Of a stretch of DNA of 64,000 bases, positions 813 through 49,080 are shown in pieces. Source of the stretch: Octopus vulgaris. Taxonomy: Eukaryota. The notes under the pieces are model-generated. The model saw nothing but the letters and a program-made list of their open reading frames with translations. It had not been told where the DNA came from and searched no databases. The translations under genes and the position numbers were made by a program. The DNA lies in the NCBI GenBank assembly GCA_951406725.2, contig OX597833.1:42160001-42224000 (forward strand), written 5' to 3'. Position 1 is the first letter of the stretch, and the number at the start of each line of letters is the position of its first letter.

Positions 813-1178
813 ATACAAAATAAGAAAATGGAGGAATAGATATCTTTCAATCATCAACTACTAGATAATACCAATTCATATAATTTTTTAACTAATTATT
901 GTGGAACATCCAGATCAAACAGAATAATACAGAATAAAACATTATCTAGTAGTTGATGATTGAAAGATATCTATTCCTCCATTTTCTTATTTTGTATTAT
1001 GAATTTGAGGTAAAACATTTTACCTTCGCCCATATAATACAATAAATGAATTAATTGCATTGCAATTCTTAGCATTTATGTATTAGCCTTTATGGGTACT
1101 TTACTGGCAGTATATTGGATAAATGATATCCCATAGTGGGTTACACTCATAACCCCTATCTCACTTTGTAATTTTATG
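813..1178. mobile_element. Penelope-like terminal repeat remnant with perfect 57-bp inverted duplication
   Basis: 813-869 is the exact reverse complement of 941-997. The arm contains TTGATGA-TT-GAAA-GATATC-TA. Flanked by TA-rich microsatellites. Confidence 0.5.
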
Positions 1179-1196
1179 TATATATATATATATATC

Positions 1197-1609
1197 TTCT
1201 ATTTTTTAATTATTATAAATCTTCCACTGAGGAGGGAGCCAGTTTGCAACAAAGATACAAGGCTCCATCTTTGGGATGTAGTTAACACAGACAAATTCAC
1301 ATTTGGAACTTGGGAACAGTCTTGCATATTTTTACTGTTCCACTCACAGATTGCACTTGTAATGTATGAATCAGTCAGTCAATATCTCTTTCTGAAAATC
1401 CCAGTTTATCCAGATTCTCCTTTAAGCATTTACTGACAAAACCTAGTGCTCCAATTAGAATTGGTATGAATATGAATTCATAGTCTGGATATAGAAGCTG
1501 GAGGTTTTGAAGCAGTTGTCCGTAGATATCCTCTTTTACTGTGATTTTCAAAGAGACATTTATATCTCCAGGGTAGCTGACTTCTATCATGGTACAGATC
1601 TTTGCCCCT
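1197..1609 (-). mobile_element. 3' end of an RLE-type (R4/Dong-like) non-LTR retrotransposon
   Basis: IEVSYPGDIN...KEDIYGQL...IPILIGALGFVSKCL...LG matches the restriction-like endonuclease C-terminus. It continues past a stop as LIHTLQVQSVSGTVKICK. Lies between (TA)n and (TATG)n. Confidence 0.75.
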
Positions 1610-1728
1610 ACATGTATGTATGTATGTATGTATGTATGTATGTATGTATGTATGTATGTATGTATGTATGTATGTATGTATGTATGTATGTATGTATATA
1701 TGTATGTATGTATGTACGTATGTATGTA
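1610..1728. repeat. (TATG)n microsatellite
   Basis: Near-perfect tandem TATG units. Confidence 0.98.
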
Positions 1729-2201
1729 TAAAGTTAGTGTTTAAGCCTTCCTAGAATTAAGACTGAATGAATGTGGTGATAAAGCTGTCACTTTTATATT
1801 AATAACTATGAAAGACTGGTGGGAATATTATCTGTATGGACTTAAAGGATTGGTCACTATTTAGTTATATAATTTAGGAGTTAGTTATAGGTTTACTTAT
1901 TGAATTTATTTACTGATACTGTTGTACATGGAGTAAATGTGTTTCTTCGTGGCAGTCTAATTAATTAAGTTAGTGTTTAATCCTTCATAGAATTAAAATT
2001 GAATGAATGTGGTAATATCTAAGGTATGTTTGTTCCCAAACAACACTTATTTTAGTGCTATTGACACCGCTGGATTGAATGGTACTGCCCAGGTGTCGAA
2101 ACTATAGTGATATCCATGGGGCAGCTGATGATGGAAGTATGTTGGATTGTTGGTAAGGCTGTTATTGTATGTATGGAATAGTATTATAACACATCCATTT
2201 G

Positions 2202-2249
<48 letters not shown>

Positions 2250-2309
2250 AATTTATGTATATGTATGTGTATGTATATATATGTATGTGTATGTATATAT
2301 AAACAAAAA

Positions 2310-2555
2310 ATAAACTCCATCAAATGTCAGAGGGGTAAGCTAGAGGTAGTTGATAGCTTCTGTTATCTAGGTGACCAAATCAGTAGTGGAGGTGGATGCG
2401 CCTAGAGAATAGCTGCAAGAATAAGAATAGGTTGGACAAAGTTCAGAGAGCTCCTACCTCTGTTAGAGTCTGGCGCAGCCCCTCAGCTTACCAGCCCTGG
2501 TCAAACCATCCAACCCATGCCAGCATGGACAACAGATGTTAAATGATGATGATGA

Positions 2556-2558
<3 letters not shown>
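2310..2558 (+). mobile_element. RTE-clade LINE fragment joined to its (GAT)n tail
   Basis: KLEVVDSFCYLGDQISSGGGC*RIAARIRIGWTKFRELLPLL followed by the CCAACCCATGCCAGCATGG..(GAT)n tail. Confidence 0.8.
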
Positions 2559-2600
<42 letters not shown>

Positions 2601-2601
<1 letters not shown>

Positions 2602-2718
2602 CAAAATAAGCAATAAGGATATCCAAAGGTAGTGTAGTACAATCGTTTCAGGCTACTTCATTTAATTAAACAATGTAAGTATTACATCAGTTTTAAAATG
2701 TAGAGCACTCTTCAGCCA
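2601..2718 (-). ncRNA. Hammerhead-like motif with long stem II in a Penelope-like terminal repeat
   Basis: Minus strand reads TGG-CTGAAGA-GTGCT...(long stem)...GAAA-CGATTG-TA. Homologous to 18260-18378. Adjacent to (TA)n. Confidence 0.55.
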
Positions 2719-4137
2719 GATATGGAATTTTAAAAATTAAATTGACAATGTTCATTTTTATACTTATTCCATTTGTCAACATTACAAAGAGGGTAGGTAT
2801 ATAGACAGAGAGGTGAATTTCATCAGGGGAGTGTGCTGAGAACTTCCTACCTTTGGGTAAAATAAAATACAGGATGATCAATAAATAATGATTTTATTCA
2901 ACATATTCCTCTCTCAGATTCACATACTTATAGCAGCAGTCCTTCAGTTTTTCTAAGTCCTGTAAAAGAGTTCGGAAGACTGGGCCTCCAATCAGGCCTT
3001 TCATGATTGAGGAAAGACTCAAAATACACAGAAACTGATGGTGGCCTATGTCAGCAAAAGATAATGTATAAAAGTTTGTAGAAGAAAAATGAATTATAGT
3101 GAGATGATTTATTGTGATGAGTAAGAAAATCCAACATGTTAAACGTTTGTCCTTTGAAAAGAAAGTAAATATAGAGGCTTTAATACCACAGTTGCAAAAT
3201 TCATGAATGAGCTTTACACAACAGAAATCTCTGTTGGTTTTTTATTGCTGGTAGCAAATATAATTGTTGGTCTAGATACATACAATGCCGCAATAATTTG
3301 GGATAGTGGTTTCAGGGCTAGTCAGTTCGATGGGATTGCTATGTCATGTGCTCTTAATCTCTTGACTGGAAAAAGGAGGAGAGTAGGGTGAATTTTTCTC
3401 TCCTGTGATTCTTGTTACATACAGTTTTTTTTCTCTTCATCCATTCTGTATTTCTCAAACACACATCTACCTCTGCATCATTTATAAAATTAATTAAATT
3501 TCAAAAATTATTCTAGTGTAAGAACTACAGCTATTTTGAAATTTAGTTTTCTCTTTAGTGTAATTCGTGATGTTTAAAATTCAAATTCAAAATGTATGTT
3601 TTCAATTTTTTCTCAACATCCTCCTCCCTAATTACTCTCTTCAAAGGTTCAATAGGATTGTCATTGAATTCCTATAATATTAGGACACTTCAACTCAATA
3701 TCATTTACTATGCTGCTAAGTGTGTGTGCATTCTGAATACTGGAACAGGATGAACTGGACTTTAATATAATAAAGTAAAACCACAAACCAAAAACTGGGT
3801 TCAGCATAACTGACAATACTCTTCCCTATTCATTTGCGGTTTTCTGCCTTGCATTCTAAGAAGCAATTATATTACAGTAAACTTGAAATCTGCTTTATAT
3901 TTTGTCTTTTAACTGTTTACTTATTTCAGTCATTGGACAGTAGCCATGCTGGAGCACCACCTTGAAGGACTTCGTAAAAAAAAAATTGACTCCAGTAGTA
4001 TTTTTTAAATTTGGCATTTATTCTATCAATCTCTTTTGACAAACCACAAATGAAGGGGGATATAAATAAACTAACATCTGTTATCAAGTGGTAGAGAGAG
4101 GACAAACTCAAAAACACACACACTACATAAATACATG

Positions 4138-4185
<48 letters not shown>

Positions 4186-4361
4186 GTTAATCCAAACAAG
4201 AAAACACAGAAAAAAAACACAGCAACGCGAGGACGTGGAACAATTAAAGTATTATTTGACGCTCAGGAAAGAAGGGAAGGAGGGTTTAACGTTTCGAGTG
4301 GAGCTCTTCGTCGGAAACAAGGAGAAGGAAAGATCCCGAGAAGGGAAGACAGGGAAGAGAT

Positions 4362-4364
<3 letters not shown>
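4186..4364 (-). mobile_element. Solo Penelope-like terminal repeat with hammerhead-like motif (4284-4318)
   Basis: Minus strand reads GTTT-CCGACGAA-GAGCTCCACTC-GAAA-CG-TT-AAAC. Same family as 31930-32115 and 45061-45266. (TA)n on both sides. Confidence 0.7.
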
Positions 4365-4436
<72 letters not shown>

Positions 4437-4600
4437 CAATCTGTAAGGAGGTTGATGTTAGGAAGGGCATCCAGCTGTAAAAACCCTGCCAAAACAGACA
4501 GCGAAGTCTGGTTTGGTTTCTGCCTAGCCAGTCCCTGTCAAGCTGTCCAGCCCATGCCAGCATGGAAAACAGACATTAAATGATGATGATGATGATGAGG

Positions 4601-4638
<38 letters not shown>

Positions 4639-4799
4639 TATATATAAAACAGACACAGTAGCCTTGGGTAGATTTTCTACCTGGCCGGCTCCTGTTAACC
4701 ATCCTACCGATGCATGCATGGAAGGTGGACATTAAACAATGATGATGCTGATGATGCTGAAGATGACGATGATATATATATGTATATATATTGTATAAA

Positions 4800-5580: not shown

Positions 5581-6199
5581 AGCAGTTGACTATGGTGCTG
5601 CTACACCAGTCATTGGGTATGACTCCTTTGTGCCACACAGTTTTTGCCTGCCAAAATCAATCACAAGGCATTGGTTAACTATGGGCTATAGTAGAAGACA
5701 CTTGACCAAAATGCTGTACAGTGGGACTGAACCCAAAACTATATGGTTGCAAAATGAACTTCTTAATCACACACCCATGCTTATGCCTACACATAGCCAT
5801 ACCTATGTTTGCAAAATAGATGCTTAAATGACAGCATACCATATCTCAAATGTGAAATAAATTTACAACTGAAGATGAACTACTTAAAAAAAAACAGAAG
5901 CATTTAACTGCAACATTAAAACAGTATAAGCAATATGCCCTAGTCTTATTAGGCAATGTTGTTTCAAAGCATGAATTAATATGTGGACTATTGTTGTTTA
6001 ACTCCCAGGTCAACTCTGATTAGAGCAGACCTTTCATCAAATATGTACCAACAAGTATACTATTTAATGTATCCTTTTCTTTATTAAGAGGGCAGGGATA
6101 ATTTGAGGGAGATCTGCTATTTATAGCAGATTGAGTGACTACATAGAAGTTTTGTTGTCAGATTGTAGCTTCATTTATTGATGTTGTATGTAGCTAATA

Positions 6200-9460: not shown

Positions 9461-9464
9461 TGAT

Positions 9465-9990: not shown

Positions 9991-10269
9991 AAAAAAAATG
10001 TACTGGAATGTACTGGCAGCATTTCTCAGACCAAAAGGCATAGATAGGAATTAAAATGAACCAAACGGAGTGGTTACAGCAGTTTTAGCTATATCTTCTG
10101 AGTTCATTGGGTTTTGGTGGTATGCACATACCAGATCTACTTTGGAAAATATAGTGCAATCATGAAGTACATAAAAAAAGCCCCTTAAGTTGGGTAGGGG
10201 ATAGTGATTGGGCATGGTAATAGTATTAAGTTTCCTGAATTACCAACAGGTCTGAAATCCACTTTATTC

Positions 10270-12697
10270 TTCTGAGCTAAATATAGCGGAGATGCCCAAG
10301 GGCTAGCAGAAGGATGTATAAGACCAAGCTGGAGCATGTGCTTGAATTCAGCACGGGCTTTCTTGAGTCTGCTGGATGAGAGAAAATAGTGGGGTCAGTT
10401 GTTGTAATAAAATGTTGAGTTGAGTGGACTGTCTGGGAAGGTTTAAAGGAGAAATCCGTTAACTCAAGCAACGAGGAAAGCAGCATATGGAACTGGTTAT
10501 TGGCAGCAGCTACAAAAAAATGATAGGCTAAGGATAGTAGTGGTAGATCCACTTGTAGGCATAAATAAAGATTGGTAGTATCCACAAGTCTCTGTTTCCT
10601 GACACCTACCAGAAGTGAATAGTGGTTTAAGAAATCCACCCTAAGGATAGGATGCAGCAGGTCAGCAATGACAAAAGTCCATTTAAAATCTCAACGCAAT
10701 GCAACGTCTTTCAGTTAAAGAAACCTGACCATAGGTTTTGATGGGAGAGTGGTTCACTGCATATAAGGAAATACTGGATAACTGTGGCTTGTTAGAGCTG
10801 AACCATAATGGCAAAATACTGCAACTTGATCCTGTATCGACCATGAACGACCTGTTTGAGTCTAGGTCCCTAATGAAGAAAGCACGATTAGCTGAAAAGT
10901 TGTGAGAGAGGTCTGATGCATCCAGGCTCTCTAGGTTCAGTTTTCCGATACTTTAAAAGCACAAGGTTTGTTACAATGATGTACCTTGTCGTGAAAACGT
11001 GCATGGTACCAACACACTGAAGAATTGTTGGTTGAAAAAGTGTTACGTCGTTTAGAAAAAGAAGAGTGGCTTCGCAAATTGAGCTATTTGGCGTGTTAAA
11101 CTGTTGATAGCCTTCAACATGGCGTCTTTATTTTTATTATTAGGCTGCTGTTGAGAAGATGGTGAAGCAATAACTGAATCAACCGCAGTGGGTCTGTGAA
11201 TTCCATTATTTTATCTTCGGACGGAACTATTTGATCTATGGTGTTGGTGTCAACCATATTTGCTAATATTGTTTGTACATTAGTTGGTAAGTGGGAAAAA
11301 ATAATTTCTTTATGAAGAAACTGTCCGCTGGTGTGTTGTCACTAAGTTCTCTAAACCGCCTAAGAAATTCTGAAAATCACCCAGGTTCTCATCTTGTAAC
11401 AAAGCAGGGAAACGGCTTTCTGCTGATATGGAATTTCTGCGTAGTATTTTGGTTCTCAAAGCATCGTAGGTCACTCTTTGTGGAAGATTTGTGATGATAT
11501 CTTTAACGGTGTCTGCTAATATGGTGGGAATGCCACTAATAAGCACGTGTAGCTTTTGTGGAGTGGCTTGTATACCATGTGCTGTGAAATAAGAATCAAG
11601 CTGTGCAAACCATAGCTTAGTGTTGCCGGAATAAGCTGGTATGGAAGTGTTACTCATGATTATAACAAAGAACAGGTGTGACAAGTGACTTTCTTGTTGG
11701 TCGTGGAAGACACAAAATTATTTCAAAATTAGAATATCAGAGGTGCTGATAGAGTAATATAGAAATTACCATGAAAAGTGTAGTATGGCATTGATGTACC
11801 ATTTGCTGTGGTTTGCGTATCTAGACGAGTTGAGTTTGCTATATTATCATAGTGAAGCGGCTATCGTGTTCTTAATGTTGGGTTCACTATTTTATAGTGA
11901 TGTCAGGGTTATCCATTTTTGGTGGTAACATTGGCTTAATGACACATTATAATTTAGTCGGTATGAGAGAAACCGTGATCACTGTGACCGACCAGGTTAT
12001 CAGATGTCGCTACACATCGCTGGTCACAATGCGCTTCTCATTGTTTTAGCCTTCAAATGATGCCACCCCTCTGGCTAAGCGAACAGGCCAACAGAAGAAA
12101 GAATGAGAGAAAGTTGTGGCGAAAGAGTGCAGCAGGGATTGCCACCAACCCCTGCCGGAGCTTCATGGAGCTTTAGGTGTTTTCGCTCAATAAACACTCA
12201 CAACGCCTGGTCTGGGAATCGAAACTGCGATCCTACAACCGCGAGTCCGCTGCCCTAACCACTGGGCCATTGTGCCTCCATGAGAGAAACAACAACAAGA
12301 AAACAGAAATTCATGAGACGCTTGTGATAAGTCATAACTTTTATTACTAGAGGTAATACATTAACATAAAAGGTTAATTGAAGGAAAGCTTATAACATTA
12401 CATGAATGTGTTCTGTTTGCAGGCACATGTCTCCAAGTAAGTAAGATGAACGTGAACGCAAGCAGATGTAAAGTGTGACAGCTTGACTCAAAGCCAGCCT
12501 AAGGCTAGACAGTCATGGAGTGGCATGAATTTAGAATTTCTTTCCTTTATATAAGGGATGGACTGGAAGTCCTCGACTTCCACGTAAACTGGAAGCTTCC
12601 AGAAAGGTCTCAAACATTCTAGAAGCTCGAGGGAGATTACTCTCGTTAAATCCCTTTTCCGTTTTGCTTCCTGTCGTAGCCACCAGGGGTCACTACA
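10270..12697 (-). mobile_element. Ty3/Gypsy LTR retrotransposon remnant (5' LTR, PBS, gag, protease, start of pol)
   Basis: Gag KLWFAQLDSYF..., CWYHARF..C..PC Cys/His motif (~11015-10960), protease FMVDTGSSCSI (~10845-10815), DFLNHYSLLV..QRLVDTT and SPWASPL. LTR TGTAGTG(12697)...CACTATA(11893) is followed by PBS-like TAGTGAACCC. Many stops and frameshifts. Confidence 0.85.
11974..12279 (-). mobile_element. tRNA-derived SINE (family C) inserted in the Gypsy LTR
   Basis: A box TGGCCCAGTGG and B box GTTTCGATTCC. TSD ATGAGAGAAAC at 11963-11973 and 12280-12290. Second copy at 38063-38367. Confidence 0.9.
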
Positions 12698-13019
12698 GAG
12701 TCATCCAATGTATACCCAGGATGTTTCTCAAACATTGCTGATGAAAGTGCCCACGTGATTTTAGGTGATGGCACTACACTATCCATGTTCCACATGAAAA
12801 TAATTGGCATGTTAATATGCAGACATTGTAGACCGTCAATTAGGTGTTATTTTTCAAGATTCTCTGGCACCAGAAATGATCCTTTAGAGTGATAAAAGCA
12901 TCAGTGGCTGCTTTTATTTGTGTGGTAAGCTCATCATCTAAAGAGCAGCATCGGTTGATAGAGCTACACAGGTTTGAAACTTATCAACATACATAAATAC
13001 ATACATACAACATATGTAT

Positions 13020-14692
13020 TGCAGGAATGGCTGTGTGGTAAGTAGCTTGTTTAACAACCACATGGTTCTGGGTTCAGTCCCACTGTGTGGCACCTTGGGC
13101 AAGTGTATTACTCAGATTACTGACAGTGGCTCATGGGTGGATGTTGTCTACCTTGACTTTGCTAAGGCTTTCAACTCTGTGCCACACAAAAGGCTTATGG
13201 TGAAACTCTCTGCAATGGGTGTGGGGGATGACCTTTTTAACTGGTTGAAATCCTTCATCCTCAGCCGAAAGGAGGTAGTCACAGTTCTAGGACAGCACTT
13301 TACACCATATGAGATGTCATCGGGTGTACCACAGGGATCTGTCCTTGGCCCCCTCTTGTTTGTGGCATACATTAACGACATAGATGCCAATTTAAAGAAT
13401 GCCACAGTATTGAAATATGCAGACGACATCAAGCTGTACCTTGAAATCAAGAGGACAGATCCTGATGTCTACAACTCTTTCCTGCAATCAGACCTAGACA
13501 CAATGCAGCAATGGATCACAGACTGGCAACTGAAACTGGCTGTGGACAAGTGTACCACCATGCATTTTGGGAGAAAAAACCCTGCGTTCACATACTCCCT
13601 CCACAACACTGATATCAAGAAATCCTCTTGCGAGCGTGACCTAGGCATCACTGTCAGCAGTGATTTGCGTTGGTCAAAGCATATCTCTAAGATTGTCAGG
13701 AAGGCCGAGGGTGTCTTGGCATCACTCAGCAGGTCTTTTGTTAGCCGCTCTCCAGCCATCTATTTAAAACTGTATACAGCTATGGTACGACCACACTTGG
13801 AATTCGCATCATCAGTTTGGAACCCCTATCTTGCACAGAACATTGACCTCCTGGAATCTGTCCAGAGACGTGCAACCAAACGCATACCCTCCATCAGACA
13901 CCTACCATATTCTGAGCGCCTTGTTTCCCTGGGCATGGATTCACTGAAGCTCCGGCGTTTGGCGACGGACTTGGTAAACACCCACAAAGTTATCAACCAC
14001 CTCACCAACAACAACACTGAACACCTTTTTGATCTCCATGTGTCTAACACACGTGGACATGCCTACAAAGTCAGAAAACAATACAGCTCCCATGACTTTC
14101 GGAAACATTTTTTCACGCTCAGAGTTGCTGAAGCATGGAATAAACTGCCTGCGTCAGTTGTTGACTGCCATGACACTGCATCTTTTAAGGCCCTCATGCT
14201 TTCCGAAATCCGCCGAAACTTCACCTGATTATATATACACTTTAGATGAGTTGTAGTGCACCTGAGCACTGTACACAATTATTATTATTATTATTATTAT
14301 TATAGCTTCGGGCTGATCAGAAGGCGCACACTCTCCTACCCTGATGTAATCTCCAGGGATACCTGTCACCCAGCAACAGGACTTCCGTAATGCTATGATG
14401 GACCGTGAAGTCTGGCATAACATAGTAAATTCCATTGTCTTGACCACGGTCGAACAATGATGATGATGATGATATGTATATTTGTATGTATGTGTGTGTG
14501 TTTGTTCCCACCCAACATCACTTGACAATCAATGTTGGTGTGCTTACGTCCCTGTAACTTAGCGGTTTGGGAAAAGAGACCGATTAAATAAGTACTAGGG
14601 CTTACGAAGAATAAGTTCTGGGTTTGATTTGCTTGACTAAAGGCGGTGCTCTAGCATGACCGCAGTCAAATGTCTGAAACAAGTAAGAGAGT
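13020..14692 (+). mobile_element. tRNA-derived SINE (family A) split by CR1 and (GAT)n-tailed LINE insertions
   Basis: Head at 13020-13107 (TGGCTGTGTGG / GGTTCAGTCCC) resumes as TATAGCTTCGGGCTGA at ~14301. The 3' half lies at 14475-14692. Confidence 0.75.
13108..14302 (+). mobile_element. 5'-truncated CR1-type LINE with uninterrupted RT C-terminal ORF (stop at 14228)
   Basis: VYLDFAKAFNSVPH, SGVPQGSVLGPLLF, YADD, ERDLG, VRPHLEF..VWNPY, LESVQRRATK, FFTLRV..WNKLP. Short 3' UTR and (ATT)n tail. Confidence 0.93.
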
Positions 14693-16102: not shown

Positions 16103-16169
16103 TATATATATATATAGATAGATATCTTTTATGTGTTTCAGCCCATAAACTGTAGCAATGCTGGAACCT

Positions 16170-17934: not shown

Positions 17935-18075
17935 TATTTTCTCTTATTCCTTTCTGTTGAAGAGCATAGGCTCGAAACATAAAAGACTTTTTCACTTTCC
18001 CAAGCATCAAACTAATACACCAGCTTGTTGTTCATACACCTGTTTCCGTCTTTTTTTTTCTATAAATTTCAACTA
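17935..18075 (+). mobile_element. Penelope-like terminal repeat with variant hammerhead-like motif (17950-17985)
   Basis: CTTT-CTGTTGAA-GAGC-ATAG-GCTC-GAAA-CA-TA-AAAG. Same family as 48900-49080. Confidence 0.6.
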
Positions 18076-18259: not shown

Positions 18260-18378
18260 TGATGAGTGCTCAGCATTTTAAAACTGTTGTAATACTTACA
18301 ACATTTAATAAAATGATGTAGTACGAAACGATCGTACCAAATTACCGGAGTCATTCTTGTTGCTTATTTTGCATATAA
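18260..18378 (+). ncRNA. Hammerhead-like motif with long stem II in a Penelope-like terminal repeat
   Basis: TGATGA-GTGCT..CATTTTA..TGTTGTAA/TTACAACA..TAAAATG..AGTAC-GAAA-CGATCG-TA-CCA. C3 is lost at the 5' junction. Confidence 0.6.
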
Positions 18379-28842: not shown

Positions 28843-31800
28843 ACATATATAGGTCAGACGGGACGCCGGTTGTCCGACCGTTTCACTGAACACTTGAGGG
28901 ACGTTCGCCTACACTCTTTTTCTCCCGTCGCACGCCACTTCCGCTCGGCCGGCCATTCCCGAGATGACATCTCAGTGTTTGGTCTCGCCCCCCACAATGG
29001 TCGCCCACTTTCCAGGCTCCACTTGGAGCAACGCTACATCTTCACCCTACAAACTACCACCCCACACGGACTTAACACAGCCCCCTCCTCTTGAGACCGT
29101 TTTTTTTTTTTTTTTTTTTTTTTTTCCGGACACACCACCCACACACACCCACCCACCTACCTCCCACCCACCTACCTACCTCCCACACGCCTGTTCACAC
29201 ACACACATACGTAGACCCATCTACGTACATACATTCACACATTTAATCACACACACTTACAGACACACATGCACATACACACACACATACATACACACAC
29301 GCATACATACTTACACACACACACACACACAGACATACATACACACATACACACACACATACATACGCACATACATACACACACACTCACACACACACAC
29401 CGCACGTACATACCTCACACACACACACATGCACACATACATGTAGGCACATACATACATACATACCCACACATGCACACCCGTACACTGAATGCACACA
29501 CACATACACCTTTTTGCATCCAGGCAGCCCCCCCCCTCTTTTCTGCTTTCCGGTTTTGGCTGATGGATCCTCGGTTCCCGCGTAGCGGGGCGTTCGAGGG
29601 CCTTTGCGCTCGCGCGCCTTGGCGCGCGCTGGGGGCTCGGTCGGCCCCTTTGGGCTTGCGTTGCACTGCTTGTGCGTTGTGTGCGTGAGCGCGCTTCGTG
29701 TGTGTGGGCTTGCTTCGGATGTGCGCTTGCGTATGTTTGCATACATACCCACACACTCGCATGCATCCCTACCCACATACATACACGCACACCTACTCAC
29801 ACACACACATACACACACACACATACCCGCACACACACACACATACATACATACACACACATACCCACTTCAGACATACACACACACAGACATACACCCA
29901 TACACCCACACTCACACGCATACACACACACACATACACACGCACACGTACACATACACACACACACACACCCACATACATACATTACACTTGTATACGC
30001 ACACACTTACATTCATACACACACACACCTACACAGCCATACCCTCACTCAGACACACACATCTACCTACACACACACAAACACACACTGACACACACCC
30101 ATACATAGATACATCTACACACTCACGCCTACACACATACATACACACATACATAAACACACACACATACACATACACACACATACGCACACACGCATAT
30201 ACTTATACACATGCACACACACACACATACATACACCCATATACATACACACACACATACCTACATACTCCTATACGCACATACATACACACAGACATAC
30301 ACACATACACACTCACACAAACATACACACACACATACTTACACACACACTCACCTGCACGCGCACACACATGCATGACAAACACTCATACACTCACACT
30401 CACATACGCACACACCAACATAAACACGCACACGCACACACACACCTACACTCCCACACACATACACACGCACCTACATACACACACGCACGCATACACA
30501 CGCATACACACATACATTACACACGTACACACACACCTACATACACATGCACACACACACACACACAAACATGCACGGACACACCCAGACATACATACAT
30601 ACACCTATATACACACGCCTACACACCTACATACACACACATATACACACGCCCACACAGCTACATACACACACATACATACACACATACACGGACACAC
30701 CCATACATACTTACATACATACACCTATACACACACGCCTACACACCTACACACACACATGCACACACACACACATGTACGCACATACACACACATATAC
30801 GCACACACATATATACCCACACACATGCACACACACACACATACGCACATACATGCACGCATGCACACGCGCACACCTACACGCATACACACACACACAC
30901 GCACGTACACATACATACATACACACACGCATACATACACCCATACACATACATGCATCCTACACACACATACATACACACTCACACATACATACACACA
31001 CACGCACTCACTCACACACCTGTATGTTCGCGCACACACATGCACATACACACACTTCCCCACACCCACACGTACATACATACACACTCATACACACATA
31101 CACACACACACACACACACGCACATACATCTATGCACACACATATATACACACATACTCACATACATTCATCGGACACACTGCCACCCAGACATACACAC
31201 AGACACACTCACACATCCACACGCACACATACGTACGCGCACACTCGCAGGCTCGCGCACACACGCGTTTGCGCCGGTTCGCGCACGCATGCGCCCGCAT
31301 GCACCTCGCCCTTGGACCCGACGAGACCTCCCGCCCGTTCCTGGGATGTCGCTTGTCGTTGGGTTTTCCCACGCCCGTCTCCGCGGGACCACTCTTCCAT
31401 CTTCCCCTCCGCTGGAGTCCTTTTCCTAACCCCCCCCCCCCTTTTTTTCGTTACACACACGCGCACACATATACACACATTGCTTAAACATATACATCAC
31501 TCTTACACACTTTCAATCTACTCGCCACTAATACTACCACGACACTGGACACACACACACACTACTACTCAACACACGCTGGCACGCTACATACGCCCCC
31601 ACCCCTTCCCCTCGCTCCCTTCCTCCTTCCTCCCTTTTCTCACTACTGACCTTTGTCTGCTATGCTGCTGCTATCCTGACCACCGTCTCGCCCTACCTCA
31701 CACGCCTACACACAGACGCACACACTAACACATACATATATTTTTTGTTTTTTTACCTCGCCTCACACACACACATACACACACGCACACGCACACACTC

Positions 31801-32115
31801 ACACATACACACACATCTGTTGCGTTACCAACCTTGTCTCCACTCTTTTGCCTTTAAAAACCCACTTTGCTCTTGTTATCGTAAACATCCGCCTTTCACC
31901 ATGTGCTACTCCTAACACCAGCCGTTTTTTTCTCTATCTCCGTTGCCCGCTCCGGGATCTTTCTTTCCTCTCTCTTCCTTCTTTATGTTTCCGACGAAGA
32001 GCTCCGCTCGAAACGTCATACCTCCCTGCTTCCATTTCCTGAGCGCCTATTAATAATAATACTGTAATTGTTCCCTTGTTGTTGTTTTTTTGTTTCCCGT
32101 TTGGATTAAAATTAT
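28843..32115 (+). mobile_element. 5'-truncated Penelope-like element: GIY-YIG C-terminus, ~2.7 kb C/A-rich tract, terminal repeat with hammerhead-like motif
   Basis: YIGQTGRRLSDRFTEHL..SPVARHF..GH..RLHLEQRYIFTLQT..PHGLN* (stop at 29094). Motif GTTT-CCGACGAA-GAGC-TCC-GCTC-GAAA-CG-TC at 31987-32017. Ends in (TA)n. That it is one continuous element is inferred. Confidence 0.75.
29126..31815 (+). repeat. Degenerate (CA)/(CATA)/(CACG) low-complexity tract, strongly strand-biased, with two GC-rich islands
   Basis: Directly visible. G is rare on + except at 29520-29735 and 31235-31440. Confidence 0.95.
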
Positions 32116-34249: not shown

Positions 34250-34288
<39 letters not shown>

Positions 34289-36201: not shown

Positions 36202-36232
<31 letters not shown>

Positions 36233-36497: not shown

Positions 36498-36568
<71 letters not shown>

Positions 36569-37557: not shown

Positions 37558-37597
<40 letters not shown>

Positions 37598-39394: not shown

Positions 39395-39457
<63 letters not shown>

Positions 39458-41720
39458 GACAGGCTTCTTTCAGTTTCCGTCTACCAAATCCACTCACAAG
39501 GCTTTGGTTGGCCCGAGGTTATAGTAGAAGACACTTGTCCAAGGTGCCACGCAGTGGGACTGAACCCGGAACCATGTGGTTGGTAAACAAGCTACTTACC
39601 ACACAGCCACTCCTGCGCCTATTACTGTTAACTACTTTTATACACCTGTCACAAATGAAGTCAACCTTCTCTGTCAGCTTGCCTATGATCTCATTACTTT
39701 GCTAGTTTACATGGGCATGCTATAAAAAATTTCTACTTCTCCTTTTTGGTGTATGGATCATCGTCACTTTTCCAATGAAAATAGTGTCCTGCTTTTCCTG
39801 CTGACTAAAACAAATTTTTGCAATGTTTACTTTGAGGCTTCTTAATTCTAGCTGATAATAATTGAGCCCTGATATATATATTAACTTGCATGCTAAATTC
39901 CTCACTGGATGACACTTCTGTACATGGCTTGTATAGTTCTCATAAGCCATTTATCTTTCCTAAGTTTTGTTAGTACAATCAAACTACAACATGTGGAATC
40001 ATGTCAAAAGCCTTTTCCTGATCAACAAAAGTTAGGTAGACTGATTTACTTGTAGCTAAGTACTTCTTTCTATCTTTGCTTCACAAGGGAAATGTCATTA
40101 GTTGCACCTCATTTTGGCCGCACCTTGTCTCAAAATCAGTTACATTAAAACCCTTTTAGTGACTTATTTTAATCTGGCCTATCATTTTATTGTCTGTTGT
40201 TGCCTTTGTTAGAGCATCTCAGTTGCCATTGTGGCAGTTGGTAATGATACTGTTATACCAATCATTGGCTATAACACCTTCTCATACTATCTGATTGACT
40301 ATGCAAGTGACTGGTGCATGACCTACTTTGCCAAATATTCTAAGCATTTCAGAAACTGTCCTTGATGGTCTGCTGCCTTCTCAGTTTTCATATTCTTAAT
40401 TGTGCTTTTAAGTGTATGGCTGTCAACTTCAACAGATGAGCCTTTTGTTAGATGTATTTGGAGTATTCCCTCTCTCTCACATGCATTCTCTTCACTGATT
40501 AATGTCTTGTAATAGCATTTTCAAGCCTCTTTCTTTTCTTTGTCATTTTAGTGAATTGCTTTAATTCATATGTACTTTTACCTAACACCCCCATGCCTCT
40601 GATTGTTACCTTGTAGAACATGTGCAAACCTCATTCTGCTTCGGTCCTTGCTAAGTATATTTGATATCTAGCTTCCCTTCCAGCTACTTGATATTGTTCT
40701 TTGCTGAGCCTTCTCTTCCAGTCTTTCCAGGCCTATCACTTAGCTCTTATGGCACTATCCTATCTACAATATTGTTCCACTATTATGTCTCTTTCTCTCT
40801 GGCTGCAACCTTTCATCACAAATCTGGTCTATAACACTTGGTAGGTTGTCTCTTCAAAAAACTCCCTATTAAGTCTTTGTCTCTTCCTCCTTCTCATCAT
40901 ATATGTCAATTAATGCTTCTCCGAACCTACAACTGCTCAAGGGCTCTTTCAACTTCCATATCTTCCTTCTCCAGGGTGTCTTGTCTCTTTCGGGTACGTC
41001 TGGTTCTTACTCTGAAGTCACTAGTCTGTGTTTCTGAATACTAGGTTGTTACCCGGGAAGAATTTAGTATTCTTCATTATCAGTCTATCCTGTATTCTGG
41101 AGTATGTGGCATCTAGCTGTTTTGTATGTTTGCTTGATTGATAGGGGATCAGATAGCGGGTCAGCTTCCTCAAGTCTGTGTTGCATGTGATCAGTTAACT
41201 TATGGAGCCTTGATGCCTCTTCATTCCTCACACTTTATCCATAACCTTTGTACATGATGGAGAAATCATAATGGCGTTGTCATACCCATTAAAATTACCA
41301 GTCAGTAAGTTTACTGTCATTTGTTATTGAGGAGGTCTGCATGAGACCCTTTTTAAAAGTGGTCCTTCAGTTCACCTATCTGCCCTGATTGTGGTACATC
41401 ATCATCATCATCATTTAATGTCCACCTTCCATGCTGGCACAGGCTGGACAGTTTAACAGGATCTGGCAAGCCCAAGGACTGCACCAAGCTCTACTGTCTG
41501 CTTTGGCATCAGTAGATAAATGTTCTGGTTGTTGTCCATGACTGCTTTAAGCTTAATTATTATATTGCACACTCTGACTACCCCATGTAGTCATATGTTC
41601 ATTTCACAGCAGACAATATAACCACTCTGCATCTCTGTTTACCACTCAGAAATACCATTCTTTATGTTAGACACAAAACTTTAGGGCTGCCATCATCAAC
41701 TTCGGCATCATAAATGTAAG
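38740..41720 (-). mobile_element. Old RTE-clade LINE (APE endonuclease + RT), heavily decayed, interrupted by younger repeats
   Basis: Minus KYLATSKSVYLTFVDQEKAFD (~40065-40003), and GNFNG, PQSG and VVRVCNIIIKLK endonuclease-like pieces (41280-41585). Confidence 0.7.
39166..39619 (-). mobile_element. Full-length SINE family A
   Basis: Complete head to (AAAGAGT)n-like tail. Confidence 0.9.
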
Positions 41721-42192
41721 TCGAGAAAGATCAAAGTGATACTGCTGTAGTGGCACATATGCTGTGATTCTTAGTTCTTTTCTTTTGTGGAATGTGGCTG
41801 AGATTAATTCTATTTTACTTCTTGTACACAGCACAGTATCTCTTCAATTTCTCCTGACCTAACTTTTATGATGCCAAAGCAGAAGTTGGCAACCATAAAG
41901 TTTTGTATCTCACATGGTGAGGGCCTTTGCTTGCAGTGAGAGGGTAGATTGGTATCTCATTTCTGCATATAAGAAGAAAACTTCTGTGATTCCTTGGTGA
42001 TGATTCAGAAATTCTCATACATAGCCAGATGTTTCCACTATTAATTGATTTGTTATTTATTTCCTCACTCACAAACAAATTACTACTGATAATTATTGAC
42101 ATGGTGTGTGTTAGTCTTTGTTGCTAATTACATGTTAAGTAGCAGAGGGTCTAATCTTTGTTAGATATAGGTAGGCATTATCACTAACAGTA

Positions 42193-42226
<34 letters not shown>

Positions 42227-43229
42227 CATACATACATACATGTATAGATAAATGTCTGTATGTTTGTGTGTATATTTATCTACATACACAAGTATGCATG
42301 TGAGTGTGTGTCTGTTAAATGATGATGATGATGATGATATATATATATATATATATATATATATCTTATCATCATAATTTTTACATCTGCTTGCTGGCAT
42401 AAGTCAGATGGATTTGTGGGGCACAACAACACAACTAGTTGTGACCATAGGACTTTTACAGACCTCTATAATTTCTGAAAAACTACATGAATAGACTTCC
42501 ATTTTTTTTTGTAAATGCTTTTATAAGTCAGTCAAGGGTGAAGAGGCTGTGTTCATGACCTTTAACAGATCCTTCCAGGTTTTTGTTTTATGATGTAGTC
42601 AACTAGAGGAAGCTGAGCTGGTGACCTTTTCTAGCCCTTTCTGAGTTTTTTTTTTAATGTTTTTTGTCAAGGGGATGGTGTAGTACCCATAACTTTAGCA
42701 ACACTCACTGTAACAACTGGAATTGATATTGTTGATGTTCAGCTTGAATTTCCATGTAAAGTTGAAATCTATTAGGGAAAAATATGAGCAGGAAAGAGAA
42801 TGGTGGGTTTGATATTGGTGTCTAGTCTGAATATTTGCAACAAAGTCAGCTTTGCTAATGTTACCCAAGGATGACAATTATGTTGATGGTATTAAACTGA
42901 GTTATGAGGCTATGAAAATATAGAGGTTCTGGTTATGATTGTTATTTCTAAATTATTTCTTCCATATTTTCCCTATTTCTTAGTATGCATGTATGTGTGT
43001 ATATGTGTTAATCTACAATAATGGAATTGCAGACATTATAGATTTGTTACATTGGTACAAGGTCAGATATTGTTTCTTCAGTTGGAAGAGGGATTGAATT
43101 TTGTGACTTTCATGCCTTTCCCAAGTGCGTTAGTTGCATAATAGAAATTAATTACTTATCTTTTCTGCGTATAATAATTGTCACATCAATTAAGCCCTTT
43201 TGGTAACATGTAATATGAATGAATGGGTC

Positions 43230-44560
43230 CTTGTAGTAAATGAAGGAAGGATTATTATTATTGGCGGAATTGTTAGAGCATCTGGCAAAATGATTTGTGG
43301 CATTTGTTCCATCCTCTGTATGTTCTGATCCCCGTCTTTTATTCTTCAGTGGTTGATAAAATGAAGTACCAATCAAATATAAGGGTTGTATAACTGACAA
43401 ATAGGCAGTGAGCTAACAGAATCATTAGTACACTGGGTGAAATCCTTAGCGGTATTTCGTCTGCCGTTACGTTCTGAGTTCAAATTCTGCCAAGGTCGAC
43501 TTTGCCTTTCATCCTTTCGGGGTCGATTAGATAAGTACCAGTTATGCACTGGGGTCGATATAATCGACTTAATCCGTTTGTCTGTCCTTGTTTGTCCTCT
43601 CTGTGTTTAGCCCCTTGTGGGTAGTAAAGAAATAGGTATTTCGTCCATCCTTATATATTCTCAGTTCAAATTCCACAAGGTCGACTTTGCCTCTCATCTT
43701 TTTGGGGCTGATAAAATAAGTACCAGTTGAACACTGGGGTCAATGTAATTGACTTAACTACTCCTGGGTAAGAGTATAAAAACTGCATCCTGCTGCCACA
43801 CCATATCGAGCCAGTGTGACAGAGTAGGCTCATCAAACCAGTATGATCACAAGATTAAATTCATGGCCTCCCAATCAGACCATAGTTGGTAGAGAGAACA
43901 TGTTGAAGACCTCATCCTGCAGTGGACTGAACACGGGTATTCCATTTCAATCCAGCTGATAAATATGTCTCAACCCCTACAAAAATAAAAAAGGAAGTTC
44001 TGACTTTGGGCCTGTTGTAAGACATTATTATTTGTCAGGATCATTAGAGCACTGGAAAAATGCCTTGTAATATTAGTTCTGACTCTTTATATTCTGAGTT
44101 CAAATCTCTTCTGTTATTCATATTTTCAGAGCTCATAAAAAAAGTATCGGTCAAGTATTGGAATTAATTTAATCAACTAATCCTTGAAATCTTAGGCCTT
44201 GTGTCAATGTTTAAATCAATTACTGTGTGCTGTGGATTGTTAGAAGAGGTGATGTGTGTCAGGCAAAATCCCCTGTGTTATTTAAAAATAAGTACCAGTT
44301 GAGCATTGGGGTCAATATAATTGTCTTTACTCCCTCCGCCAAAATTTTAGGCCATGTGCCTATAATAGAAAGGATTATTATAGAAGGTGCTAGATGAAAA
44401 AATTGGTAGAACACCATTCAAAAATGGCTTGCAGTTTCTAGTAACATTCTGAGTTCAAATCCTGCTGAGGTTGAATTTGCTGTTCATTCCTCTGAGGTTG
44501 ATAATATAATCACCTATACCTCAGTTACAAAGTACCAGTTAAATATTGAGGTTAGCTACA
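43230..44560. mobile_element. Cluster of SINE family B copies (best 43404-43635, +)
   Basis: Repeated TTCTGAGTTCAAAT..TTCATCC..AAGTACCAG blocks. Further decayed copies at 33095-33300, 47745-48150 and 55225-55355. Confidence 0.75.
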
Positions 44561-44602
44561 CTTCAACTCCTTAAATACTAGTTAAGGGTCAGTCAACTAT
44601 AT

Positions 44603-45001
44603 CAGGCCTGGCCGACTCGAATTACATTGCGGGCCACTTTAATCACAGAAAGTTTTTTTGAGGGGTGCTTGTATATTTTAAAATGTATACATAAATGTGC
44701 GTACATATAAAGGCTAGCAAAAAACTACATACGCATGCTACAAGAATAGAGCACTGCTGACAGAGCTGAAAGCATTTTGCTTTCTCATGCTATTATTACA
44801 ATAATGAATGAATGATCGTTGATTCAATATGAAAATACAGTAGTATCTTTCTTTCTTACTTTTCATTACAATCTTTAATTTTTGATAAAATTTTTTAAAT
44901 GTTTGTTCAGATAAGTCCATTTCAAGAAAGTATCCAGCAGGGCACAAGATAAAAGTCTGCGGGCTGCATGTGGTTCGTTGACCTCAAGTTGGCTAGCCCT
45001 G
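44603..45001. mobile_element. hAT-type MITE
   Basis: Perfect 8-bp TSD AACTATAT (44595-44602, 45002-45009). Ends CAGGCCTGGCCGAC / GTTGGCTAGCCCTG. Confidence 0.9.
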
Positions 45002-45060
45002 AACTATATCTTCCATTGCAAAGCGTAAGACTTCGTGTCTACATATATATATATATAAAA

Positions 45061-45266
45061 TGTGACCTCGTGTGTACCATTGGAGATTTTTTTTTCCTCT
45101 GTCTTCCCTTCTCTGGATCTTTCCTTCTCCTATGTTTCCGACAAAGAGCTCCGCTCGAAACGTTAAACCCTCCTTCTTTCCTTCTTTCCTGAGCGTCCAA
45201 TAATACTATATTTGTTCCACGTCTTCGCATTGTTGTGTTTTTTTGTGCTTTCTTGTTTGGATTAAA
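45061..45266 (+). mobile_element. Solo Penelope-like terminal repeat with mutated hammerhead-like motif (45134-45168)
   Basis: GTTT-CCGACAAA-GAGC-TCC-GCTC-GAAA-CG-TT-AAAC (G8>A). Flanked by (TA)n. Confidence 0.7.
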
Positions 45267-45267
45267 T

Positions 45268-45324
<57 letters not shown>

Positions 45325-45326
<2 letters not shown>

Positions 45327-45566
45327 GGAGTAAACACATAAATGTGAAACAAGGTGGAAAAAAGAGTACTCAAATACCAGTGGTAGAGTAATATGCTTTA
45401 TTTAAAGCAGCAGAAAATTCAACAAAACCTGTTACTCTGAGTTTCCCGTTGCCGTTCATCGGACAGTTTTTGCTAGAATTTCTTTCTAGCAAAAACTGTC
45501 CGATGAACAGCAACGAGAAACTCAGAGTAACAGATTTTGTTGAATTTTCTGCTGCTTTAAATAAAG
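45325..45566. mobile_element. Inverted Penelope-like terminal repeats (83-bp arms) each carrying a hammerhead-like motif
   Basis: 45396-45478 pairs with 45484-45566 (3 mismatches). Motif CTGT-CCGATGA-ACGGCAACGG-GAAA-CTCAGAG-TA-ACAG. (TA)n on both sides. Confidence 0.75.
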
Positions 45567-45598
<32 letters not shown>

Positions 45599-46660
45599 CA
45601 TACACACACATATAAATACATACACACACACACACATGCATATACATACTATGTGTGTGTGTGTGTGAATATATTTATGCATTAGAAGTTATCCTGTCAA
45701 TGAAATTTATTGTTGTGTTCCATGTACTTTTATGCAAGTTATTCTAAATATTTAACTTATTAATTACATATGTAAAGTACAGGTGTTCCTCTTATTTTCT
45801 CTTTCTACTCCACCCTTTTCTTTCTCTTCCTTTGGCAAGTGCTCTATTTAGATTCTGAAATAGTGAAGAAACCATAGTCGTAGTAATGTATTTGATAGGA
45901 AACCCAATGTAAGCTAACTTAAACTTTTGTAAGAAATTTTAATCATAAATTTATTGGGATTCGTTAACTGAAACAACTTGTGTGTTAGTATTTATTTTGT
46001 TTCATAAGAAGACTATATCATGAAACAATTTAAGAAAAATATTTTACAATTTTAAGGCTTAACTGGGAAAGTATGTAATTTTTTTTCTTTTAATCTTAAA
46101 ACTTGAAATTATAGGGAAATTTATGATTAAAGCCCTAAATGAAAAAAAAAACATAGGAATTAACACGATTTTTCAATTTTAAAACTTAAATAAAAAAAGA
46201 AAAAAAATTACAAAAACTGGAAAATTTATGATTTTCCAATTTTAAAATGCAGATTATTTTAGTTCAATCCGTTGAAAATGTTTTGTTCTACATTTCTAGC
46301 ATGTTTTTATCTTTTTATTGAATTTCTTTGCTGTTCTTTACTTTTGCTTATAGGATTTCTTATAACATATATTTAATACCTATCATATTTGATTATGTTC
46401 CTTGGCACCTGATCTGTCAGAATATAATTACAATGAGCATTCTGAAAATATTTTCTGTTTCAGGCTCTAATATTCCATAAGAAATTTGGAATATCTAATA
46501 TCTATGTTTTTATTATCAAATCTGTATCAGTTTTTAAAAGGTTATATCAACTCCCTTTAGAGGGATCTTAGAGATTTCAAGTGTTTTTGATTATGAAATA
46601 TTTGGAATTTAAAAATTTTTCATGAAATTCATTTTATCCGGAGGAAGAAAATTTGTATGT

Positions 46661-46872
46661 TTAACCCTTTTGTTACTGTATTTATTTTGAGATGCTCTCT
46701 GTTTCTTTCGGTTACTTTAAATTATAACAAAGAATTGAGTAAAATAACTTAGTTATCATTCAGCTAGTGTTAGGAACATAACTTGGGACTAAGGCTTGGT
46801 GGAAGATTTTAATTCAAAACTTGTACTCAGTGCCAGAGCTGGATTCAACTGGGTTGGTAATGAAAGGGTGAA
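46661..46872. mobile_element. TTAA-type (piggyBac-like) MITE
   Basis: TTAACCCTTTTGTTAC ... GTAATGAAAGGGTGAA. Homologous to 59975-60202. Confidence 0.75.
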
Positions 46873-48396
46873 GAAATGTTCATTTTATAACATATGCTTA
46901 GTTAGCTTTAAGCTTATGTTAGAAAATTATCATCATCATCATTATTATTATTAGGTAGAAGTCATAGAGTATGGGCTAAATGTTCCTTTGTGTTCTGATT
47001 TCAAATCCCAGTAGGGATGACCTTACACTTTACCCTCTGGAAAGAGGGATCAATAAAATAAATATTCCTCAAATACTGAGGTCACTTTAATTAACTGTAT
47101 CTTCACTCAAGATTTATTATCTTGTATGGATATTAGAAATCAGGAGGTGCAGCCCCATTCCCCTCCCTCAGTAAATTTGCTGTGTGAGTAATGGTGAGTG
47201 AGAGTGGAGGATATTGCTGGAGTGAGTGGGTCTACTCTCATCATGCATCTGGCTGGAGAACACAGCTGGGAAAATAGCACTTGCTACTAGTATTCCTTTC
47301 TATATTGTTCTTTTATATGCTTGTTATCTTGATTTTGTTAAACTGCTTCTGTTTTGTAATGTCCCTCTCTTCGATTATCCTTGTGGCAGAATTTTTTTTT
47401 ATAGGTTATTTACTTATCTGAAGCAAATCTTGAGAAGGAAGATCTAGTCTATGTTTTGTTTTCGTATCTTTTGAGCTTAATTGAAAGATAACCGAGAAAA
47501 TGTAACATTTTTATATAATTGAAATTCCAATTTATGATGTAAATTCTTGTTGACTCCAGCTGTCTTCACTTTCACAGGGCAATAAAAATTTTGTAGTAAT
47601 CCTGAAATGAGTTTCCTAATATGAAAATCTGTCACTGAATATATTTTTAAGGACTCATGAGGTTTACCACTATGGGCATACAAATAATGTTTAGAGAATC
47701 GGTTTGATGTGATCTTAATCAATAGTTATCATTGTTACATGTCAGTGGATTGACAGAAGCACTAGAATATCAGATTAAAATGCCCCTTGTATTTGTTCTG
47801 AGTTCAAAATCCCACTGAGGCAAACTTTGCTTTTTGTCTTTCTGTGGGTCTATAAAATAAAGTATCAGTCATGTATTGGGGTGAATTTAATTGGCTAACA
47901 CCTCCACCCAAATTGCTGGCCTTATGCATAAATTAAAAATTACCGGTGGTGGATTGGTAGAATCAGTAGAGCATCAGACAAAATCCCTTGTGGCATTTCA
48001 GTTCTTTACATTCTGAATTCAAATATCACTGAGGTCAACTTTACCTTTCATCCTTTCAGAGTTTATAAAATAAAATACCAGTCAAGTACTGGAGTCAGTG
48101 TAAGTGACTAACCCTTTCCTCCCAAAATTACTGTCCCTGCACCTTAATTAGAAATAATTATCTTATCAGTGCTGTCACAGTCACAAAAATGGTCTGCAAT
48201 GTAGCTAGATAGGTGTATCGTATTAATTTTGGTTTAGGACATAAATAATGTTGTATATAGCTAAAAAAATTTTGAGAGGTTGTTGAGGAAGACTTAGTTG
48301 CTTTATTGAACAAGTGATGCAACTACATAAACATTCCTCTTTTGTAACACAATTGAGCTATTATTTTTTTTATTGTTTAGTAAGGAGTAAGAAGCG

Positions 48397-48530
48397 ATGT
48401 CCATGCCATTTGCAAGTTTTTCTCTCAGGCTGATGGGATTGATATGGCCGATGTCTAGTTTGAACTTCTATAAGTTAGTGTCTGCAGCGGAGGAAGGAAA
48501 CTTAAATTCTGGAGCTATCAAGATTCTAAG
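48397..48530 (+). CDS. Candidate host coding exon MSMPFASFSLRLMGLIWPMSSLNFYKLVSAAEEGNLNSGAIKIL, ankyrin-like motif
   Basis: T-rich acceptors TTGTTTAG (48380) and TTTCTCTCAG (48428), higher GC, donor AAG/GTAGAC at 48531. LVSAAEEGNL resembles an ankyrin-repeat helix. Confidence 0.35.
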
Positions 48531-48649
48531 GTAGACACACACAACTGTTCAGTTGTGTGCATGTCTATGATTTAAGATAAATTGTTACAAATGGGGATTA
48601 TGATTATGTATGACAGCAAGCATGGTGGATGCAAGCATATATATATATA

Positions 48650-48691
<42 letters not shown>

Positions 48692-48759
48692 GTGTGCTGT
48701 TCTGTTTTAGGTAGGGTCAACAAAAGAAGTAGTCCATCCAGTGAGAGATAAATATTTAA

Positions 48760-48881
48760 TATACACAGGATTTAAATGCAAGCAACTATTAGTTTCATGC
48801 CTTGAAACAGAATACTCTAACAAGCTTGTTTTTTTTTGAGGCATGAAACTAAGAGTAGCTTGCATTTAAATCTTGTGTATA
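48760..48881. repeat. Inverted repeat (~43-bp arms), probable Penelope-like terminal repeat fold-back
   Basis: 48760-48802 pairs with 48839-48881 (3 mismatches). Contains CAAGC-TTG(T)nGA-GGCAT-GAAA-CTAAGAG-TA-GCTTG. Confidence 0.6.
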
Positions 48882-48899
48882 CTAAATTATACATATGAT

Positions 48900-49080
48900 A
48901 GATCGGTAGCCACTACACACATTTTTTTTCTCTCCTTGTTTCTTTCTGTGTTCCTTTCTGTGGAAGAGCGTAGGCTCGAAATGTAAAAGACGTTTTCAAT
49001 CCCTGAGCGTTATACTAATACATCTGTTTGTTTTCTACACCACCTGTCTTCGTCTTTTGTTTTTTCGTGAATTCTCCTTA
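48900..49080 (+). mobile_element. Penelope-like terminal repeat with variant hammerhead-like motif (48954-48989)
   Basis: CTTT-CTGTGGAA-GAGC-GTAG-GCTC-GAAA-TG-TA-AAAG. Ends in (TA)n. Confidence 0.62.

Follow-up and report, generated by a model that had tools for sequence, protein, structure and literature searches.

The locus described here is a 64-kb, repeat-rich stretch of the Octopus vulgaris genome (assembly GCA_951406725.2, contig OX597833.1, positions 42,160,001 to 42,224,000 of the forward strand; hereafter the window, numbered from its first nucleotide), in which a preliminary description, made from the sequence alone, had placed about ten hammerhead ribozymes in terminal repeats of Penelope-like elements (PLEs). 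The twelve positions named there sort by blastn into six dispersed repeat families, designated A to F, and nine of them carry minimal type I hammerheads: three copies of family A, two each of B and C, and the two arms of an E insertion (Table 1). The pair at 953(+) and 837(-) and the position at 48821 do not. The loci are very probably 5′-truncated, often inverted PLE 3′ ends lodged in (TA)n tracts, whose hammerhead, conserved in the parent elements, likely cuts its own RNA slowly as a dimer, probably with the aid of protein. For each family, 30 loci ranked by resemblance to the window copy were fetched from the 2.80-Gb assembly (227 contigs); a first look at the genome yielded candidates, which are not to be taken as copy numbers, amounting to 2280 for A, 1047 for B, 1896 for C, 1019 for D, 171 for E and 50 for F.

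Table 1. Features of the window, with coordinates counted from its first nucleotide.
Feature	Coordinates	Strand	Description
Family D fold-back remnant	813..1180	.	arms 813-869 and 941-997; tail to ~1180; holds no hammerhead
Family C hammerhead	2633..2720	-	canonical CUGAAGA core; stem II a 63-nt irregular hairpin; helix III ACGAUUGU; fragment 2601 to ~2830
Family A hammerhead	4284..4318	-	in 180-nt 3′ fragment 4185-4362; one stem II pair lost
LTR (long terminal repeat)-retrotransposon remnant	10054-11717	-	DUF7041, weak reverse transcriptase (RT)
LINE-type RT fragment	12978-14228	+	
Tc1/IS630-like transposase	15172-16028	-	in pieces
Family B hammerhead	17950..17985	+	A6U core, extra A; helix III damaged (ACAU) and mismatched; fragment ~17935-18075
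Family C hammerhead (second subfamily)	18260..18341	+	lacks C3 and the stem I 5′ strand; fragment end 18372
gag-like frame	24955-25946	-	zinc knuckle
5′-truncated PLE, family A	28846..32110	+	half endonuclease, CA-rich 3′ untranslated region (UTR), hammerhead, (TA)n end; missed by the preliminary description
Family A hammerhead	31987..32021	+	CCGACGA (U4C) and extra A; 4-bp stem II; helix III ACGU; C17
Family A hammerhead	45134..45168	+	in 210-nt fragment 45057-45266; G8A at 45138
Family E fold-back insertion	45326..45568	.	between (TA)n tracts; tailed arm 45326-45480 (-), tail-less inverted arm 45484-45567 (+)
Family E hammerhead	45429..45466	-	CCGAUGA; 2-bp stem II; GNRA loop flanked by A.G; helix III ACUCAGAGU
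Family E hammerhead, inverted arm	45496..45533	+	inner stem II pair broken
Family F fold-back remnant	48754..48887	.	both arms start inside stem II; 3′ half of hammerhead only
Family B hammerhead	48954..48989	+	CUGUGGA (A6U), extra A; 4-bp stem II; helix III AUGU; fragment 48897-49080

A structure descriptor matched the window five times, against a mean of 0.18 (maximum 2) in the 50 locally shuffled windows that served as the chance control; earlier versions of the descriptor gave 2 matches against 0, and 5 against a mean of 0.7 (maximum 4; 30 shuffles). Four of the nine hammerheads were missed by the descriptor because they are damaged or mismatched, and these were identified through family alignment. 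The copy at 45429(-) agrees with its family majority throughout, that at 31987 agrees with its subfamily, and that at 48954 departs by one helix III wobble; the other six are damaged. Rescanning the window with all four 3:8 pairs and with 8-nt cores revealed no additional credible hammerhead, and two stray descriptor matches, at 32951(+) and 3616(-), probably arose by chance. Chance matching in AT-rich repeat DNA does account for the 953/837 motif, but as a general explanation it is hardly credible: the excess over the shuffled windows, combined with family-wide conservation and covariation, refutes it for A, B, C and E.

The formula originally given for the motif left out an extra A that follows A9 in A, B and young E copies. 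All real copies have the strand order of type I. The canonical core (C3 U4 G5 A6 N7 G8 A9...G12 A13 A14 A15.1...U16.1 H17) is found in the C and D majorities and in one E subfamily, while C4 occurs in A and most of E, U6 in B and an 8-nt core in F; position 10.1-11.1 is a wobble or mismatch in C, D and E. The proposed U4C and A6U cores are family-level features, and a stem II extension of 63 nt occurs in family C; a C3U core and a 2-nt stem II were dropped because both came from the false locus 953/837. Helix III is palindromic and too short, as first described, in families A, B, C, E and F, being ACGU in A and B, an 8-nt palindrome with covariation in C, and an odd 9-nt palindrome able to close three pairs alone in E and F. 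The (TA)n niche is borne out, with (TA)4 at the 3′ end in 23, 23, 16, 25 and 28 of 30 loci for families A, B, C, D and E (F was left out of the count), compared with 5% of random window positions. CpG sites of the hammerhead copies decay 3-5 times faster. The preliminary description had staked its claim on core and stem positions being conserved beyond their flanks, and such extra conservation was seen for C, A and B, so the claim survives on this point.

Covariation was assessed in family C, for which 14 sequences from four subfamilies were aligned, three of the rows being near-identical. In this alignment 88.5% of the cells are paired, compared with 31-48% in slid controls; 10 of the 30 pairs change on both sides, including four of five in stem I and three of five in stem II, and the covariation score was reached by none of 500 shuffles. 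Across the four subfamily majorities the invariant positions number 10 of 11 in the core, 21 of 38 in the flanks and 5 of 26 in the stems. The long stem II of this family is an irregular hairpin rather than a loop. The copy at 2633..2720 is short of one pair in each of stems I and II, and several relatives of the family show 5′ truncation, an inverted partner copy and a tail on one side. Helix I is further supported by a compensatory change between families A and B, whose outer stem I pairs are swapped (G-C against C-G).

Family A ties the hammerheads to a PLE within the window itself. The truncated element at 28846..32110 begins with the C-terminal half of a GIY-YIG endonuclease (28846-29094), a half domain that by itself yields no Pfam match, and continues through ~2.9 kb of 3′ UTR. 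It resembles a fetched locus, L364, in which the endonuclease sits 2.4 kb upstream of an A copy, with 77% amino-acid identity over 82 codons and colinearity in three blocks, and a relative on another contig (L117) is 98.8% identical to it over 1452 nt. Its 3′ UTR contains two GC-rich islands (29520-29720 and 31240-31440), similar ones being present in L364. C4 was found in 33 of 40 family A copies. The hammerhead at 31987 has a U-U mismatch in stem I that is typical of its subfamily, and in the copy at 45134 G8A breaks the C3-G8 pair, most likely through CpG decay. An A subfamily 'dead but spreading' with G8A was considered and rejected: 16 of the 30 top matches carry G8A, linked to a second site (p=0.0013), but both are CpG sites, and the linkage is an artefact of ranking the matches against a query that itself bears the two changes; among A flank copies picked without that query, G8A is rare. 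As a separate observation, CCYGAGCG is kept in A and B ~25 nt past the cut site (45188-45197 and 49001-49011), where it can pair with the stem II 3′ strand and G12, a possible off-switch fold; by inspection, it provides no alternative stem I.

In family B, the substitution at position 6 is fixed rather than sporadic. Of 60 copies, 57 have U6 and 57-59 keep positions 3, 4, 5, 8 and 9, with N7 free to vary (A 26, G 22, C 9, U 3). No literature report of a natural A6U hammerhead or of families A-F was found; the Lunse 2017 list and the supplements of PMC4209133 and of the bioRxiv work cited below could hold such variants. Four of 30 long B copies are preceded on their own strand by an RT-thumb or endonuclease frame. 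In all, four of the six families (A, B, C and F) can be linked to GIY-YIG open reading frames (ORFs), by the endonuclease in each case and additionally by the RT-thumb in B, which upholds the attribution to several diverged PLE families sharing a (TA)n niche; a full ORF was recovered for none of the four. The link for C comes from 1 of 30 loci (L083), and that for F from 4 of 30 copies with a PLE ORF upstream, two of which share ~620 colinear nt. We take A and B to be Neptune-like and C and F to be Nematis-like, on motif resemblance and not on a tree. Two further candidate associations were discarded: the ORF at L364:4-339, which had seemed to join an endonuclease to C2, belongs to a B-type element, and where a PLE ORF adjoins an E or C2 copy (L092, L105, L185 and L189), orientation or a (TA)n break indicates separate insertions. 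For D and E the PLE origin rests on layout because no ORF could be linked.

Families D and F account for the positions that failed. None of 74 arms taken from 58 further family-D loci has the palindrome AGATATCT of 953(+)/837(-), the commonest forms at that site being two non-palindromic ones (37 and 17 arms); the motif is a chance look-alike. The true family D hammerhead, seen in 22 arms, has a canonical CUGANGA core, a stem II of ~110 nt and ACAGCUGU; the site at which it is predicted to cleave is 190 nt from the 3′ end, 58 nt upstream of the point where the window copy begins. Among 24 D copies, three have their first nucleotide no more than 2 nt from this predicted site, a weak and post hoc hint of real cleavage. 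At 48821 both F arms keep the GAAA, the palindrome, UA and stem I′, and the upstream core of the family, an 8-nt CUGA-R-N-GA present in 12 of 30 copies, is absent, so the locus holds a 3′ half and no complete hammerhead. Truncation at the 5′ end, an inverted partner and a one-sided tail characterize D, E and F in the window and most of their relatives.

The E insertion illustrates this fold-back layout with both hammerheads present. One E subfamily has C4 and another U4, and in 95 of 124 arms agreement with the majority sets in at positions 0-3, ~18 nt upstream of C3, after the removal of seven duplicate loci and with queries that contained this start and so favoured such arms. This shared beginning raises the possibility, which we regard as unlikely though worth weighing, that what is seen in E, A and B is not random truncation but a set of short non-autonomous units with a start of their own, akin to retrozymes or short interspersed elements (SINEs). 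The common start recurs in older E subfamilies, and the 30 best-ranked A loci all break off no more than ~35 nt upstream of where the query starts. However, multi-kb copies of A and B that extend to the ORF are also present, no tandem arrangement of A, B or E, a requirement for retrozymes, was seen, and besides the bias of the E queries a favoured stopping point may do no more than indicate where transcription starts within the pseudo-LTR.

The two arms of E insertions also bear on how these copies were made. In 45 two-arm loci scored at four diagnostic non-CpG sites, the arms are identical in 35, differ once in 8 and twice in 2, against a background of 1.3% per site; random pairing of arms would give ~22 loci with two or more differences. 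One source per insertion is thus the rule, given the 35 loci with identical arms. The window locus (45326-45568) is one of the two exceptions: its inverted arm bears both marks of the second subfamily and its tailed arm neither, a mixture accounted for either by two templates within a single event or by gene conversion afterwards.

Such mixed arms, matching other haplotypes, are among the observations that could suggest that what maintains the motifs is a role as RNA handles for the PLE protein or as a dimer link joining two template RNAs, cutting being secondary and U6 tolerated as catalysis would be dispensable. We find this doubtful. Family B did spread with U6 and F with its 8-nt core, and catalytic mutants of the hammerhead in an anole PLE were reported to be without effect on insertion in vitro (PMC11167929). 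Against it, the fixation of B positions 3, 4, 5, 8 and 9 while N7 varies is the pattern of a catalytic core, most E loci have identical arms with gene conversion explaining the exceptions equally well, and the D copies beginning at the predicted cut, for what a post hoc hint is worth, point to cleavage. A combined scheme, in which B is a fixed A6U hammerhead still cutting with Penelope protein, and helix III links two template RNAs as a dimer at a single (TA)n nick so as to explain head-to-head insertions and the mixed subfamilies of some of them, such as 45326-45568, seems quite improbable.

We favour the account of truncated PLE 3′ ends. Parent PLEs would be transcribed and then reverse-transcribed into (TA)n with early stops, leaving short single or head-to-head ends; given its position 50-190 nt from the 3′ end, the hammerhead is included in them. 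By analogy with characterized elements, the parental hammerhead would cut the element RNA slowly, dimerized through the palindromic helix III, together with an element protein. In the anole study, the PLE protein nicks AT-rich DNA on both strands, two internal reverse-transcription start sites give the tail, and the hammerhead cuts only with protein (PMC11167929). Minimal hammerheads are likewise described as inactive alone and weakly cleaving as dimers (PMC4209133), and A6C and U4C are listed as reducing activity yet occurring naturally, along with an insertion after A6 (PMC3088659). The genome still holds many GIY-YIG ORFs, including young PLE families with open frames. One encodes an intact ORF of 781 residues with RT and GIY-YIG (L212:2164-4506), with a further open frame, in a different phase, overlapping it on the upstream side, and its hammerhead has a U3-A8 core ~120 nt before (TA)n. 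Another, with a 717-residue protein (L252; L231-L260), is very young, 150 of 150 scored matches being 100% identical over 148 residues, and has a hammerhead with a U4C core, an extra U before GAAA and the same helix III as E, ACUCAGAGU. Each of the two families has a minimal hammerhead near its end, 50-170 nt short of (TA)n; neither is a parent of A-F. The window copies themselves we infer to be mostly decayed passengers without effect on a host transcript.

Several points weigh against this account. None of the short hammerhead fragments, with the exception of E, takes the active shape on folding as a lone strand or unconstrained homodimer. The U4C and A6U cores are expected to slow cleavage, and some families may keep the shape without cutting. 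The shuffle behind the C covariation score ignores relatedness among rows, three of the 14 being near-identical, and the C link to an ORF is one copy with ~270 nt between the ORF and the stretch common to a second copy. Finally, family E has no linked ORF, and none was linked to D in six 10-kb stretches or over a 1.7 kb extension.

The preliminary description went further and proposed that copies within an intron complement one another and cut the host pre-mRNA. In its favour, the ACGU palindrome is common to A and B, and the plus strand carries five A, B or C copies. Nevertheless, the proposal is highly improbable. No convincing host exon was recognized among the 86 ORFs of the window and 89 ORFs of the flanking 20 kb, a survey that short exons would escape. 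Most copies are damaged, and only A and B have a helix III palindrome in common. The stem I strands of A and B mismatch at one of four pairs, leaving 3-bp stems I. Same-strand copies are at least 3.8 kb apart, with one partner of the nearest pair carrying G8A; the E arms lie on opposite strands, and their transcript would form an 88-nt hairpin; and minimal hammerheads cleave weakly even as tandem dimers (PMC4209133). Contigs from four runs guessed to be RNA give thin, patchy cover of 40000-59900 with no exon-like joints among those listed, and are uninformative on cleavage or an intron. The window locus is ordinary repeat debris and gives no sign of an effect on a host gene.

Elsewhere in the window, Pfam matches are to LINE, LTR and transposase remnants. 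An Rfam scan gave no hammerhead family among the 150 of 280 matches listed, which include only (TA)n-driven microRNA look-alikes. The segment 32696-32827 (-) weakly resembles (E 0.002) the 717-residue PLE protein in its RT-thumb region, and a half-site at 51600-51680, consisting of GAAA, an 8-nt palindrome and A and ending at (TA)n, is probably the decayed end of a further PLE family. The fetched DNA as a whole (L001-L372, 1.4 Mb) contains at least 12 further minimal hammerhead families, several with U3-A8 cores, and at L334-L340 a near-identical 3-kb unit with D and E insertions occurs seven times, on small contigs and near one contig start.

The candidate roles of PLE hammerheads are processing, a protein-assisted switch, or none beyond that of a passenger. 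Because the genome combines many independent families, naturally varied in the core (C4, U6, 8-nt, U3-A8), with young intact ORFs, the role becomes testable by pairing an RNA with its cognate protein, the 717-residue family being a suitable RNA and protein pair for such assays.

How do these families relate to known systems? They follow the minimal hammerheads of Cervera and de la Pena 2014 (PMC4209133) in their type I layout, helix I of 4-5 bp, extra nucleotide between 9 and 10.1, palindromic positions 15.2-16.2, U3-A8 covariants, many families per genome and mostly single truncated copies with some opposite-strand pairs. That alignment includes the molluscs Lottia and Crassostrea, and the supplementary file searched has no octopus row; a 2026 O. 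vulgaris repeat paper contains 0 occurrences of hammerhead or ribozyme. The published consensus is CUGANGAH with G10.1-C11.1. In the octopus families the core departs from it by U4C (A, E), A6U (B) or a length of 8 nt (F), the 10.1-11.1 position of C, D and E is G.U, U.U or A.G, and extensions of stem II measure 63-110 nt.

Short, non-coding units with a type I hammerhead are also known as non-LTR retrozymes, which are proposed to ride PLEs in metazoans (PMC7229834; bioRxiv 10.64898/2026.07.22.740005), and family E is of similar size. Retrozymes, however, have canonical hammerheads and are arranged in tandem; in the window each copy is either single or inverted, and head-to-tail tandem units of 150-450 bp with hammerheads were absent from the window and none was noticed in the family loci. 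The small dimer-cleaving variants of Lunse, Weinberg and Breaker 2017 (via PMC6765202) similarly have a diminished stem III and a PLE association. The core strands of the real window copies are never out of circular order as in the non-circularly permuted hammerheads (type SGC/CSG; PMC10085705).

At the level of the element, the closest parallels drawn are with two PLE studies. The Anolis Poseidon PLE PAc (Frangieh et al. 2024, PMC11167929) supplies the mechanistic model for the tails, for priming in AT-rich DNA on both strands and for protein-assisted cleavage; it belongs to another clade and its hammerhead overlaps the ORF start. Like the EN+ (endonuclease-bearing) PLEs of Craig et al. 2021 (PMC8557442), the window families show 5′ truncation, an adjacent inverted copy, a one-sided tail and (TA)n targets, and, like the Neptune and Nematis elements described there (C-terminal GIY-YIG, CX2-5CxxC linker), a hammerhead near the 3′ end and a cysteine linker before the endonuclease; the tails are longer here (~70 nt in E, 185 nt in D) and the 3′ UTRs reach 3 kb. 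The kind of locus found in the octopus window is thus already known, its layout, extra nucleotide, palindromic helix III, family diversity and opposite-strand pairs from Cervera 2014, and its targeting and tails from Craig 2021.

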